Source: a virus (Duplodnaviria; Caudoviricetes). From it: a stretch of DNA of 54,989 nt. Location of the stretch: IMG/VR virus record IMGVR_UViG_3300030107_002762, positions 1 through 54,989 of that record; one strand, given 5' to 3'. The translations under genes were made by a program, and so were the position numbers. This document shows, piece by piece, positions 37,713-53,692 of the stretch (position 1 is the stretch's first letter; every line of letters starts with the position of its first letter). The notes under the pieces were generated by a model. That model did no database searches, had not been told where the DNA came from, and worked only from the letters and a program-made list of their open reading frames with translations.

Positions 37713-37731
37713 ACTGTAAGTATACAGAAAT

Positions 37732-37815
37732 CTAACTAAACTACAAGAACTAAATTAACTAAATTAACTAAACTAAATTAACTAACTTAACTAAGCTAAC
37801 TAAACTAAATCCTAA
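37732..37815. repeat. Array of short AACTAA/CTAA repeats
   Basis: More than ten CTAA units. Confidence 0.85.
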
Positions 37816-37901
37816 AAAAATCCCTCGCTCCCTCCCTCGTTCGTTGGGTGCGGGTCTGTGTTTGGGTCAGGGTTCGTGTGTACTAAAAAGATAGACCGAC
37901 G

Positions 37902-37948
37902 GATAGAGTAGAGCGAGAGTAGAGCGATAGAGTAGACTGGAGTAGAGC
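37902..37948. repeat. GAGTAGA repeat array
   Basis: Four GAGTAGA units. Confidence 0.8.
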
Positions 37949-37950
37949 AC

Positions 37951-37978
37951 AAAAAAGGGCAGCCGAAGCCACCCTTTT
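37951..37978 (-). terminator. Rho-independent terminator
   Basis: GGG-GGC-UUCG-GCU-CCC hairpin plus U6. Confidence 0.75.
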
Positions 37979-37992
37979 AAGACGATTAAAGA

Positions 37993-38444: not shown

Positions 38445-38978
38445 TCAGTCAGTTTGCCTGAAGTCACCCTCAATGACATTGGATTCAGTAGAGCGTTTCT
38501 TTATTAATTCTTCGAGTCGAGTGAGTATGTCGTCCTTGGACATCAAATCAATCTTTGCGGTCAGTATCTCGCGTCTATCGATGTAGAGTCCACCAGCTTT
38601 GCCTCGGTGCACTTCGGCTGTTATGGCTGCAGATATCTGTCCTTGGTCCTTGGCTTCTTCTCGCAGGTCGTGGAGCGTGGACAAATGACTTTCTAGAGAA
38701 ACTGCGTCCCTCTCTGAGGCTGCGATTTCTAGATCAATCAGGTAGTTTCGTACAACTGGGTTATGATTGAGTAGTACACTGCCCTGTGTCTTTGCACCCT
38801 TCCTATCCTTTGTATATCCTGCTTTGATAGCAGCTTCAGTAGCTGTTTGCCCTTTTAAATACTCCTTACAAAACTTCTTTTGTTTCGAGTTGAGTGGTTG
38901 CCATATCTTACCTTTGTCGTCAACATATGCTTTACCGTCTTCGGTAGGTATTAATTGCGTGTAAGTCAGCTGTTTCAT
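38445..38978 (-). CDS. terS: Terminase small subunit
   Basis: LNSKQKKFCKEY, ATEAAIKAGY, SAAITAEVHRGK. Confidence 0.88.
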   Translation of the reverse strand: MKQLTYTQLIPTEDGKAYVDDKGKIWQPLNSKQKKFCKEYLKGQTATEAAIKAGYTKDRKGAKTQGSVLLNHNPVVRNYLIDLEIAASERDAVSLESHLSTLHDLREEAKDQGQISAAITAEVHRGKAGGLYIDRREILTAKIDLMSKDDILTRLEELIKKRSTESNVIEGDFRQTD

Positions 38979-40058: not shown

Positions 40059-40091
40059 AAAAAACCCCCGACTGTCGTAAACAATCGGGGG
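40059..40091 (-). terminator. Rho-independent terminator
   Basis: CCCCCGA/TCGGGGG stem plus U6. Confidence 0.8.
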
Positions 40092-40105
40092 CTTCGAATG
40101 TTGGC

Positions 40106-41127: not shown

Positions 41128-41472
41128 CTACGCAGTCTCGTCAGTGGGTATTGCTTCTAAATCACCATTACCCAAATACCAATACTCGATATCGATATGA
41201 TCTACAGCGATAATCTCGGCACCCTCCCAGTTTTGTAGTATCCAGTCATTCGTCAGCTCTCCTGCATGTCTATCGATTAGTCCGAGTTGGTTATCGATCA
41301 CTTTAGTCCAGAGCTCACCATAAAGTTCTTCTACTTTTTGGAAGTCTTCTACTGTACCTTTAAACATCAGCTGTCTACCTTTCGGACTACTAATTGTGTA
41401 ATTAGTTTTTCTAGTCTTAATCGCAGCTTCTGTAGGGTCTACTAAGTAAAACTCATAAATTCTATCGGTCAT
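41128..41472 (-). CDS. Hypothetical early protein
   Basis: RBS GGAGG; ATGA overlap with the upstream gene. Confidence 0.6.
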   Translation of the reverse strand: MTDRIYEFYLVDPTEAAIKTRKTNYTISSPKGRQLMFKGTVEDFQKVEELYGELWTKVIDNQLGLIDRHAGELTNDWILQNWEGAEIIAVDHIDIEYWYLGNGDLEAIPTDETA

Positions 41473-41672
41473 ACTTTTTTACCTCCCATAGGGTCAGCTA
41501 GAGCAACGTATGGATCGTCGCCGTCATATTCGAACATCTCTAATGCTTTATTTCGAACATGGTTAGCCGTGTAACGCTCCATAGCTTCTCTACATTTTTC
41601 TTTAGTCGCACCGTATACTCTAGGTACGCCCACCTCGATACATTTTCCAACGTATACTTTTTTCTTAGTCAT
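41469..41672 (-). CDS. Hypothetical early protein
   Basis: RBS AAGGAG and upstream promoter. Confidence 0.6.
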   Translation of the reverse strand: MTKKKVYVGKCIEVGVPRVYGATKEKCREAMERYTANHVRNKALEMFEYDGDDPYVALADPMGGKKV

Positions 41673-41707
41673 AACTTTCTCCTTTCTTATTAATAGTTAT
41701 TAAGTAC

Positions 41708-41739
41708 ATTTTACTTACGAATACCGCCAAAGTAAAGCA
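41708..41739 (-). promoter_or_regulatory. Early promoter TTTACT-N17-TAAAAT
   Basis: Repeated motif. Confidence 0.75.
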
Positions 41740-41754
41740 GTAATACCAAAGGGC

Positions 41755-41827
41755 GAGTGCTTTCGTCAGACAACTGCACTCTAAGTTGTTATGACAGGGA
41801 AAATGAAAGTACATAAAACCTGCTGAC
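41755..41827 (-). ncRNA. Candidate three-way-junction pseudoknot RNA
   Basis: P1 GUCAG/CUGAC, P2 CAGG/CCUG, P3 ACAACU/AGUUGU; loop GAGUGC pairs with 3' GCACUC. Confidence 0.6.
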
Positions 41828-41841
41828 TTCAACCTTCCTAC

Positions 41842-42009
41842 TTAGGTTGAATGCTCCTCTGCTTCATAATCATTCCAATCTAAATAAAGGCATAAGTTCC
41901 AACCCTCATCATTTTCGTCAGCTATTTTTATAGCTTCCTCTTTTGAGTTTGCTTCGACTATGATTTCGTATAACACTTTTTGAATTGCTGTAACTCTATA
42001 TGTCTTCAT
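41842..42009 (-). CDS. 55-aa protein, absent from the ORF track
   Basis: MKTYRVTA...IVEANSKEEAIKIA; RBS AGGAGG. Confidence 0.65.
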   Translation of the reverse strand: MKTYRVTAIQKVLYEIIVEANSKEEAIKIADENDEGWNLCLYLDWNDYEAEEHST

Positions 42010-42206
42010 GCTTCCTCCTTAAACTTTCGTAATAAAAAGTCTTGGTTAGCTTCAAAATAATCTGTTTTACTCAGGACTTCTTGCTCACCATACGCTTCTT
42101 TTTCGAGTAGATATGCTTGGTACATATTATCAAAAAAGATTTCGTATGGGCTACGTTTATCCGACCATGAGTAATTATATTCTGCAATTAATTTTTTTAT
42201 ATTCAT
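42006..42206 (-). CDS. Hypothetical early protein
   Basis: Coupled ORF. Confidence 0.55.
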   Translation of the reverse strand: MNIKKLIAEYNYSWSDKRSPYEIFFDNMYQAYLLEKEAYGEQEVLSKTDYFEANQDFLLRKFKEEA

Positions 42207-42208
42207 AT

Positions 42209-42496
42209 TTAATCTAAACCTCGCGTATGCTGTTTTACATATTCAGGACTAAAGTCCTCTGGTGGACCTTCAGCAATATACGAATAAGTATGATCTAAAT
42301 ACTGTTCTAAAAACCTCAAAACATCGCTTTTGTAGAGTTTATCGGAAGGTCCATAAACTTTTTCAAAGTCGAGTAATACCTCGACCACCCAGTCATGAGC
42401 CTCCATTATCTGTTTATCGGTAAAGTTCTCGTATTGTAAATGCTCAGTAATATATTTGAGCGACTGATTTTTAATCTCACTTGTGGTCAACATCAT
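42209..42496 (-). CDS. Hypothetical early protein
   Basis: RBS GGAGG. Confidence 0.55.
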   Translation of the reverse strand: MMLTTSEIKNQSLKYITEHLQYENFTDKQIMEAHDWVVEVLLDFEKVYGPSDKLYKSDVLRFLEQYLDHTYSYIAEGPPEDFSPEYVKQHTRGLD

Positions 42497-42732: not shown

Positions 42733-42764
42733 ATTATAGGTACGAGTATTAGCAAAGTAAAGCA
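42733..42764 (-). promoter_or_regulatory. Early promoter TTTACT-N17-TATAAT
   Basis: Repeated motif. Confidence 0.8.
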
Positions 42765-42968
42765 CTATACCAAGCCCCTGACTTTAGCCATACGTTTAGA
42801 CATACGATAAATTGCACGACCACATTTAGGGTCTAAAAATATCGTAGGCTCACGTTGTTCGTTTCCCTGGTGATCTCTATTCATACGTTGTACGTGTTTA
42901 GCTTGTCGCCAATCGACCCCACCTTTTTTCAAAACTTTACGTAACAATCTAGCTTTCTTACTATTCAT
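42765..42968 (-). CDS. Basic hypothetical protein
   Basis: MNSKKARLLRK, CGRAIYR. Confidence 0.55.
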   Translation of the reverse strand: MNSKKARLLRKVLKKGGVDWRQAKHVQRMNRDHQGNEQREPTIFLDPKCGRAIYRMSKRMAKVRGLV

Positions 42969-43870: not shown

Positions 43871-43902
43871 ATATTAAACGCCAATATTAGCAAAGTAAAG
43901 CA
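43871..43902 (-). promoter_or_regulatory. Early promoter TTTACT-N17-TAATAT
   Basis: Repeated motif. Confidence 0.75.
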
Positions 43903-46635: not shown

Positions 46636-46668
46636 TATTTAAAAGTACAGCCTTAAGAAAGTAAAGCA
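46636..46668 (-). promoter_or_regulatory. Early promoter (TGCTTTACTTT with a weak -10)
   Basis: Repeated motif, overlapping the end of the upstream gene. Confidence 0.55.
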
Positions 46669-53661: not shown

Positions 53662-53692
53662 ATTATCCTTTACTTTTATATGCAAAGTAAAG
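53662..53692 (-). promoter_or_regulatory. Promoter TTTACT-N18-GATAAT inside an inverted repeat
   Basis: CTTTACTTT-N7-AAAGTAAAG. Confidence 0.6.

Follow-up and report, generated by a model that had tools for sequence, protein, structure and literature searches.

What occupies the gap between the stop codon of a small gene and a promoter on the minus strand of an uncultured phage genome: an RNA with a fold of its own, the structured part of a movable regulatory block, a site on the DNA, or a spacer whose helices arose by chance? We took up this question for an IMG/VR record of 54,989 bp (the window, meaning the whole stretch of DNA analysed, estimated to be 89% complete), for which an earlier note had written out a compact three-way-junction RNA with a pseudoknot just before a promoter and had compared it with nuclease-resistant RNAs and small ribozymes.

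Genomic setting of the element

The minus strand carries nearly all long ORFs of the window, with a layout that leads from helicase, thymidylate synthase and DNA polymerase genes at 54-48 kb, through small ORFans at 45-40 kb, to genes for the small and large terminase, portal, capsid and tail; the element falls in this ORFan cluster, which separates the replication genes from the packaging genes, a position that leaves the label "early" of the earlier note unconfirmed. Because the large terminase is only 52-60% identical to those of 023Pt_psg01, DSL-LC04 and the Pelagibacter phages HTVC027P and HTVC023P, the phage stands distant from isolates, and we take it to be an uncultured marine podophage, a distant relative of HTVC023P-type pelagiphages. 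A blastn search with positions 41400-42300 gave no match among the INPHARED phages, Pfam returned no informative family for 24 neighbouring ORFs of the window, and PHROGs returned none for the four ORFs that flank the element. For the 67-aa protein encoded next to it, the ESM Atlas produced low-score matches only, and an AlphaFold2 prediction from 6 sequences for the 114-aa protein that co-occurs with the element had a mean pLDDT of 42, too poor for a fold search. A tRNA-like reading was dropped, as ARAGORN found no tRNA or tmRNA in the window. The text of a pelagiphage transcriptome paper (PMC12753301) contains none of the words promoter, terminator, noncoding and intergenic.

The element exactly occupies the gap between a stop codon and a repeated promoter motif (Table 1). 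That the proposed structure ends before a promoter was borne out: the motif is genuine, with boxes located by a promoter scan (TTTACT at 41736-41731, then 17 nt, then TAAAAT at 41713-41708), and the pattern TA(G/C)TGCTTTACTTTG..TAnAAT recurs on the minus strand at 46665, 44821, 43899, 42761, 41736 and 38370, with weaker copies at 53691, 47793 and 36200, for a total of 6-9 copies. At 43899, 42761 and 41736, spaced by about 1 kb, the promoter and the SD/ATG are repeated together as one block. Upstream of the remaining promoter copies there is no comparable element, and the spacers there measure 0-60 nt. Since the conserved block ends in 13 nt of promoter sequence, we took the element proper to be 41829-41752.

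Table 1. Features of the element and of the promoter block that follows it, in coordinates of the window
Feature	Position	Strand	Remarks
Non-coding element, AAGUCAG ... GCACUCGCC	41752..41829	minus	single copy; ~75-78 nt
P1, 5′ strand GUCAG	41827-41823	minus	proposed to pair with 41769-41765; invariant in 7/7 variants
P1, 3′ strand CUGAC	41769-41765	minus	invariant in 7/7 variants
P2 hairpin, CAGG / CCUG	41822-41819 / 41798-41795	minus	stem invariant
Junction UCAUA between P2 and P3	41794-41790	minus	invariant
P3, ACAACU / AGUUGU	41789-41784 / 41775-41770	minus	8-nt loop UAGAGUGC
Proposed pseudoknot, 5′ strand GAGUGC, within P3 loop	41781-41776	minus	invariant
Linker GAAA	41764-41761	minus	GAGA in 2 variants, GAAAA in 1
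Proposed pseudoknot, 3′ strand GCACUC	41760-41755	minus	3′ strand of a plain hairpin in nested folds
8-bp hairpin, UUCAACCU / AGGUUGAA	41851-41844 / 41835-41828	minus	this window only
Promoter, TATTACTGC-TTTACT-17 nt-TAAAAT	41708..41745	minus	repeated type
Shine-Dalgarno and ATG of 67-aa gene	41670..41685	minus	common to the 42761 and 43899 cassettes

The four perfect Watson-Crick helices of the earlier note stand as written (minus strand, 41827-41755), all of them being present in an exhaustive listing of perfect Watson-Crick stems with lengths of 5 bp for P1, 4 bp for P2, 6 bp for P3 and 6 bp for the pseudoknot between the P3 loop and the tail. The same listing contains two extra complementarities in the P2 loop, UUAUG/CAUAA and CUUUC/GAAAG, and GUCA at 41795-41792 is an alternative partner (GUCA/UGAC) for part of the 3′ strand of P1. 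The 8-bp hairpin described upstream of the structure is real and spans the TAA stop (41844-41842) of the upstream 55-aa ORF, but it is missing in all six of the other variants.

Distribution and mosaic flanks

We found the element in 11 IMG/VR contigs and in 7 metagenome contigs that carry the same variants, amounting to 7 distinct sequence variants (alignments A2 and A3) from roughly a dozen related phages; of the 54 stretches that one IMG/VR scan returned, 43 were chance matches with no relation to the element. A covariance model (R1) scored 108 bits at the element (E 4e-29), with the next best hit in the window at E 0.31, and identified one copy each in five related contigs. The same model found none in the isolates nearest to the phage, the four genomes 023Pt_psg01, DSL-LC04, HTVC027P and HTVC023P (best E 0.24), and a scan of 185,579 prokaryote genomes for the element yielded no occurrence.

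A promoter lies directly downstream of the element in 11/11 IMG/VR and 7/7 metagenome contigs, and the element is present in all nine of the IMG/VR contigs with the promoter type of the window, as well as in all ten contigs found with the 114-aa gene. In one variant type (L040, 2 contigs), another promoter follows the element, with its -35 beginning at the same position. The genes around this block vary, with four upstream contexts and three downstream genes. In several contexts, the TGA of the upstream gene lies within GGUUGAAG, just before P1, and downstream of the promoter come the 67-aa gene, the 114-aa gene directly, or other small genes (L040 type). In two types (L056 and L040), the approximately 100 nt upstream of the element resemble a decayed 3′ end of the 55-aa gene; extending the fold over the 80-nt upstream spacer of the L056 type gave z = 0.08, with no hint of a larger RNA.

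Sequence conservation and covariation

The stems that we tested for constraint had been proposed beforehand from one sequence. In the hand-checked alignment A3 of the 7 variants, variable columns avoid them, with 2 of 42 paired columns variable compared with 15 of 37 unpaired columns (Fisher p = 1.9e-4); counting events rather than columns, we estimate the same bias at p ~0.002. Nineteen of the 21 pairs never vary. The U-A pair closing P3 becomes U-G in three of the seven variants, and the basal A-U becomes C.U in two. The former change is a hint of the minus strand, on which the earlier note had placed the RNA, since it would amount to a C.A mismatch on the opposite strand; the assignment is compatible with this one change. 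An indel of 4 nt lies in the P2 loop, another of 4 nt in the tail and one of 1 nt in the linker; the P2 loop, U-rich and 20 nt long (16 nt in the L040 type), also has substitutions. In three variants, an A.G mismatch changes on both sides to G-C and adds a seventh pair to the pseudoknot. Among the 21 pairs themselves, covariation, which the earlier note had named as a check on its fold, did not appear: none of the 21 changed on both sides in the 7 variants, and thus no fold is proven.

Compared with neighbouring genes, the level of conservation depended on the gene. In 5 variants, identity to the window is 86-96% for the element and only 69-87%, in DNA, for the co-occurring 114-aa gene, so that the element was the better conserved of the two in all five comparisons. 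The adjacent 67-aa gene is 93-94% identical, its codon positions being 10.3, 7.4 and 11.8% variable, and against this background the loops change faster and the stems not significantly more slowly; the MAFFT region comparison behind this contrast misaligned the tail of the L002 type, and its count of 7 variable columns among 42 paired ones is an artefact. In the L056 type, the element (88.5% identical) does not stand out against the left-flank gene (87.5%), and its conservation may therefore reflect a recent exchange of the block.

Predicted folds and chance expectation

The nested minimum free energy (MFE) fold of the 78-nt element has a z-score of -2.0 (-1.85 to -2.77 among the variants, and -1.84 for the opposite strand) and differs from the three-way junction. 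Both RNAalifold and RNAfold, the latter in 7/7 variants, preferred a two-hairpin fold made up of P2 and of a plain GAGUGC/GCACUC stem that encloses a small hairpin; the P2 hairpin appears in every predicted fold. The two-hairpin fold reaches -18.4 kcal/mol compared with -10.8 kcal/mol for the three-way junction alone. Because GAGUGC-AGUUGU-CUGAC runs on without a break for 17 nt, a linker of 4 nt would bridge 11 bp under coaxial stacking, and the junction would need a sharp bend for the linker to close. The proposal of a three-way junction with a pseudoknot therefore survives in part: its stems are nearly invariant and its loops vary, but none of its pairs covaries and the two-hairpin fold is the one of minimum free energy.

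To what extent such helices arise by chance depends on what is counted. Perfect stems totalling at least 21 bp, in any topology, occurred in 120 of 1000 shuffles; the best stem total of the sequence, 29 bp, was reached by none of 1000 and ties the maximum over 7846 genome windows, 20 of which reach at least 27 bp. A descriptor of the topology, composed after the element had been seen, matched no locus but this one on either strand of the real genome. Among shuffled genomes, it had at least one match in 56 of 120 with loosened thresholds and in 3 of 126 when the helices had to be as long as observed. That the single match falls exactly in one of the few non-coding gaps would seem to add weight. 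Overall, the conserved single-copy non-coding element with nearly invariant proposed stems is real, its fold is plausible, and its structure goes beyond chance only moderately.

Coding potential, RNA libraries and termination

The possibility that the element encodes a small protein, starting at a TTG at 41832 (55-aa ORF, 41832-41665), appears very remote to us. An SD-like GGAGGAAGG precedes this TTG, where neighbouring genes have ATG, and the frame is open in the window and restored in the L002 type by changes of +1 and -4 nt. Against a protein, however, the TTG is missing in the L056 and L040 types; 4-nt indels in the loop (L040) and in the tail (L056) shift the frame while the following nucleotides stay identical; approximately 8 of 9 substitutions are non-synonymous in this frame; the ORF overruns the promoter and SD of the next gene; and a tblastn search with it gave no match. 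The description of the locus as intergenic is upheld by the frame-shifting indels and the absence of a tblastn match, and on the pattern of sequence change the element is non-coding.

In metatranscriptomes of two studies, contigs span 41684-41834 (X15), and 41667-41761 together with 41756-41839 (X16); being contigs, they record presence only, with neither ends nor strand, may include DNA carry-over, and are uninformative for the parts that they leave uncovered. One RNA-library contig bridges the element and the promoter, so that, if it derives from RNA, read-through is not fully blocked here. A terminator scan called no site at the element locus, where no U-tract follows the stem, and found a canonical intrinsic terminator at 40095-40061, 1.7 kb downstream; classical termination at the element is therefore unlikely.

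Interpretation of the element

Given a stop, a spacer, a repeated promoter and an SD/ATG among ORFans at mosaic junctions, we read the locus, tentatively, as a cassette resembling the PeSL cassettes of T4-type phages, in which the element would be the structured part of a portable structure-promoter-SD unit and would mark a transcript boundary. The cassette would have the order folded spacer, sigma-70-like phage promoter, SD/ATG. Read-through from upstream promoters would copy the element as the 3′ untranslated end of the upstream gene, and the RNA copy would fold compactly, the P2 hairpin and the GAGUGC/GCACUC helix being the best supported parts; P1 and P3 may be the first helices to form as transcription proceeds, with the P3 loop left open to the tail, which would give the three-way junction with its pseudoknot. 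Such a fold could mark the 3′ limit of the upstream unit, whether it attenuates read-through or protects the mRNA end, and at the DNA level the whole cassette could serve as a homologous linker for gene swapping. The sequence of the element, its position, its single copy, its conservation, its lack of coding and its mosaic flanks are observed; it is by inference that we have the element act as RNA, choose between its folds and assign it a boundary function.

The main rival to this cassette reading is a functionless relic spacer, such as the stump of a former gene start at an GAGGAGGAAG-(A/T)TGA junction, with chance helices and carried along in a frequently recombining block; we regard it as rather unlikely, though deserving of serious weight. 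Its 5′ edge, GGAGGAAGGTTGA, resembles the overlapping stop/start junction GAGGAGGAAGCATGA usual in this phage group, and these genomes do keep relics, as the decayed-looking 55-aa gene end of the L056 and L040 types illustrates. A relic would also agree with the lack of covariation in the 21 pairs, with a level of conservation that the adjacent 67-aa gene and the left-flank gene equal, and with the frequency at which shuffled genomes match the loosened topology and shuffled sequences reach 21 bp of stems. What speaks against it is that variable columns avoid the stems, that the element exceeds the 114-aa gene in conservation in every comparison, that the topology at the observed helix lengths is rare in shuffled genomes and is found here in a non-coding gap, and that the 29-bp self-complementarity exceeds all 1000 shuffles and ties the genome-wide maximum.

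Two further explanations keep the helices functional, one in RNA and the other in DNA, and each seems to us improbable. According to the first, the element is an autonomous three-way-junction and pseudoknot RNA, either an xrRNA-like exoribonuclease block or a new self-cleaving ribozyme. In its favour are four perfect and nearly invariant helices, whose order matches the long-range pseudoknot topology of flaviviral xrRNAs; moreover, P2, P3 and P1 could have formed by the time the tail is transcribed, the linker varies in length and sequence (GAAA, GAGA, GAAAA) as a connector would, and a seventh pseudoknot pair is gained in 3 variants. The energy difference in favour of the two-hairpin fold, which is the MFE structure in 7/7 variants, argues against it, as do the 11 bp that a 4-nt linker must span unless the junction bends sharply, the missing ring pairing of xrRNAs and the misfit of the hammerhead core (both described below), the absence of an Rfam match at E<=10 with xrRNA and ribozyme families included, and a tiny family with no covariation. 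According to the second, the element is an operator in which inverted repeats, chiefly GAGTGC-N15-GCACTC with its centre ~45 bp upstream of the -35, would bind a regulator, of phage or host, of the adjacent promoter. The constant presence of a promoter directly downstream and the invariant half-sites around a spacer of variable sequence, typical of operators, agree with this explanation, and the L040 gene behind the promoter has weak ribbon-helix-helix matches (E 0.002, below the Pfam cut-off). Yet the spacing is not fixed: the L002 type has N16 in place of N15 within the repeat, and in 3 variants the -35 lies 4 nt closer, changes that dimeric DNA binders and phase-dependent activators seldom tolerate. 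An arrangement of four perfect inverted repeats interleaved with one another is also more usual in a folded single strand, and none of the 24 neighbouring ORFs of the window could be recognised as coding for a DNA-binding protein.

At present the element is a candidate motif whose members are few, closely related and free of covariation, and its value lies in offering a defined 78-nt construct as a cheap in vitro target. If the fold is real, a structured RNA module travels with a promoter through a gene-shuffling region of abundant uncultured ocean phages, and the PeSL idea would extend beyond T4-type phages to an RNA more elaborate than a terminator hairpin. With low probability, the element would represent a new, lineage-restricted class of compact three-way junction with pseudoknot in marine phages, whose effect on the polycistronic transcript would be mechanical or catalytic: for example the first xrRNA-like fold of a phage, or a new self-cleaving ribozyme by which transcription units are separated just upstream of a promoter. 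A nuclease block or self-cleavage, if true, would make it a new RNA class in phages.

Comparison with known systems

Rfam 15 gave no match anywhere in the window at the gathering threshold, and four noise matches at E<=10 in 41600-41950, none of them over the element core; the Rfam scan that the earlier note had suggested thus named no family even at this lenient threshold. Its comparison with nuclease-resistant RNAs and ribozymes was not sustained either, as the features that define xrRNAs and the known small ribozymes were not found in the element.

Pistol and hammerhead ribozymes are common in phage and marine metagenome DNA. The hammerhead core consists of CUGANGA ... GAAA ... NUH around three ordered stems, and the window indeed has CUGACGA, GAAA and GUC/AUA triplets; however, compared by eye with the consensus, the hammerhead was rejected, for CUGACGA and GAAA overlap and no GAA-A precedes stem III. 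The junction strands, moreover, differ from those of a hammerhead in measuring 0/5/0 nt here. Pistol ribozymes combine a P1 loop pseudoknot with a conserved P2-P3 hairpin that has a G-U cleavage site. The element is similar in having a hairpin loop that may form a 6-bp pseudoknot with a downstream strand, but the pistol was likewise rejected: the sequences that would supply its P2 (ACGAA/UUCGU) and P3 (UACUGC/GCGGUA) span the promoter and are lost in the L040 type.

In flaviviral xrRNAs, the helices follow the order P1-P2-P3 and the P3 loop pairs with the tail just 3′ of P1, while the 5′ end pairs with the junction and closes a ring around the 5′ strand. xrRNAs are not known from DNA phages of bacteria, and a literature search had no phage xrRNA among the matches listed. 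Apart from its size (~70-75 nt), the element would resemble xrRNAs in topology only. A three-way junction can be drawn from its conserved helices, which neither covary nor give the MFE fold. Between the P3 loop and the sequence 3′ of P1 there is a complementarity of 6-7 bp in 7/7 variants, which could equally form a plain hairpin; long-range pseudoknots in xrRNAs have 2-7 bp according to PMC8571300. The element differs in showing no similarity to xrRNAs in sequence or by covariance model, in a pairing between 5′ end and junction of only 3 nt (UGA/UCA) that is missing in the L056 and L040 types, and in having no downstream hairpin.

With intrinsic terminators, the element shares its place at the end of a cistron and a stable hairpin, GAGUGC/GCACUC, of 6-7 bp; unlike in a terminator, the stem is followed by GCCCUUUGG or CACUCUAUU, with no U-run.

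The closest parallel is with the PeSL cassettes of T4-type phages, which, in PMC2839356 and PMC4122927, are described as a stem-loop terminator followed by a promoter and an SD at mosaic junctions, the stem-loop having been shown to terminate transcription and the conserved ~100 bp serving as recombination linkers. The folded part of our locus differs in being no G/C-rich stem-loop terminator and in having no U-tract, and the genome that carries it differs as well, being a podophage-like one of roughly 55 kb and not that of a T4-type myovirus. The element is also single-copy and accompanies only one of the 6-9 promoter copies, so that, unlike PeSL stem-loops, it is no repeated part of a cassette. 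The likeness lies in an intergenic composite of folded element, sigma-70-like promoter and SD/ATG; in a setting among ORFans in a plastic region where the promoter and SD part is repeated; and in close relatives whose flanking genes differ and whose homology breaks at the cassette. With no U-run or terminator call and an association with one promoter copy, the locus would count as a variant of the PeSL cassettes rather than a member.

Probable gene relics and edge sequences around the element

In two of the variant types of the element found in related contigs, L056 and L040, the roughly 80-100 nt upstream (L117 1419-1500, a contig stretch of the L056 type, and L120 897-995, one of the L040 type) share TGCCTTTAT and TAAGTAGGAA with the 55-aa gene that directly precedes the element in the window. 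By sequence likeness, these stretches resemble what decay has left of that gene's 3′ end, and gene relics would therefore be retained in this region of these genomes. Distant relatives of the 55-aa gene terminate in an overlapping stop/start junction, GAGGAGGAAGCATGA (gene junctions in contig stretches L010-L016). The sequence at the 5′ edge of the element, GGAGGAAGGTTGA, resembles a version of that junction in which TTG replaces ATG. A further likeness concerns the 67-aa gene 42765-42968, whose coding end, AAAGTCAGGGGCTTGGTATAG, has AAGTCAG and TTGGTAT in common with the two edges of the element (41829-41745); the element thus resembles an insertion between those two edge sequences, a sharing that may also be coincidence.

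Signals and repeats in the window

Features in the window and in a related contig stretch (L120)
Feature	Position	Strand	Description
Promoter motif	46665, 44821, 43899, 42761, 41736, 38370	minus	TA(G/C)TGCTTTACTTTG, then TAnAAT
Weaker copies of the same motif	53691, 47793, 36200	minus	TA(G/C)TGCTTTACTTTG..TAnAAT
AAAGTCAGGGGCTTGGTATAG	within 42735-42790	minus	precedes promoter copy at 42761
Inverted repeat	41723-41743	minus	TACTGC-N9-GCGGTA; flanks -35 of 41736 promoter on both sides
Intrinsic terminator	40061-40095	minus	strong, canonical; 16-bp stem, 7 G-C pairs, then U-run
Small-terminase-like gene	38445-38978		Pfam Terminase_2
Tandem repeat GATAGAGTAGAGC	37902-37948		unit ~11 nt, 3-4 copies; within gap 37713-37992
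Tandem repeat AACTAAATT	37748-37808		unit ~9 nt, ~7 copies; within gap 37713-37992
55-aa gene, L040 type	L120 1158-1325		behind alternative promoter

The inverted repeat around the -35 is a possible operator; alternatively, it may form a hairpin within read-through RNA. In the L056 type its right arm reads GCAGTA, which makes the repeat perfectly complementary. The product of the L040-type 55-aa gene, which is distinct from the window's, may be a small regulator, with weak ribbon-helix-helix matches that both fall below the Pfam cut-offs (RHH_5, E 0.002; RHH_1, E 0.007).

Elsewhere in the window, the terminator closes the small-gene cluster, directly ahead of the genes leading to terminase. 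Downstream of the small-terminase-like gene lies a non-coding gap. It bears both tandem repeats and has an iteron-like appearance, and may serve as an origin or as a packaging site; GC skew is approximately 0 across 36-39 kb, compared with -0.1 to -0.2 in the remainder.

Three of the promoter-motif copies, spaced approximately 1.0-1.1 kb apart, also have in common the SD block AAGAAAGGAGAAAGTTATGA. The repeated motif and common SD block give this ORFan region a set of recombination linkers like those of PeSL, the promoter-early stem-loop cassette of T4-type phages.
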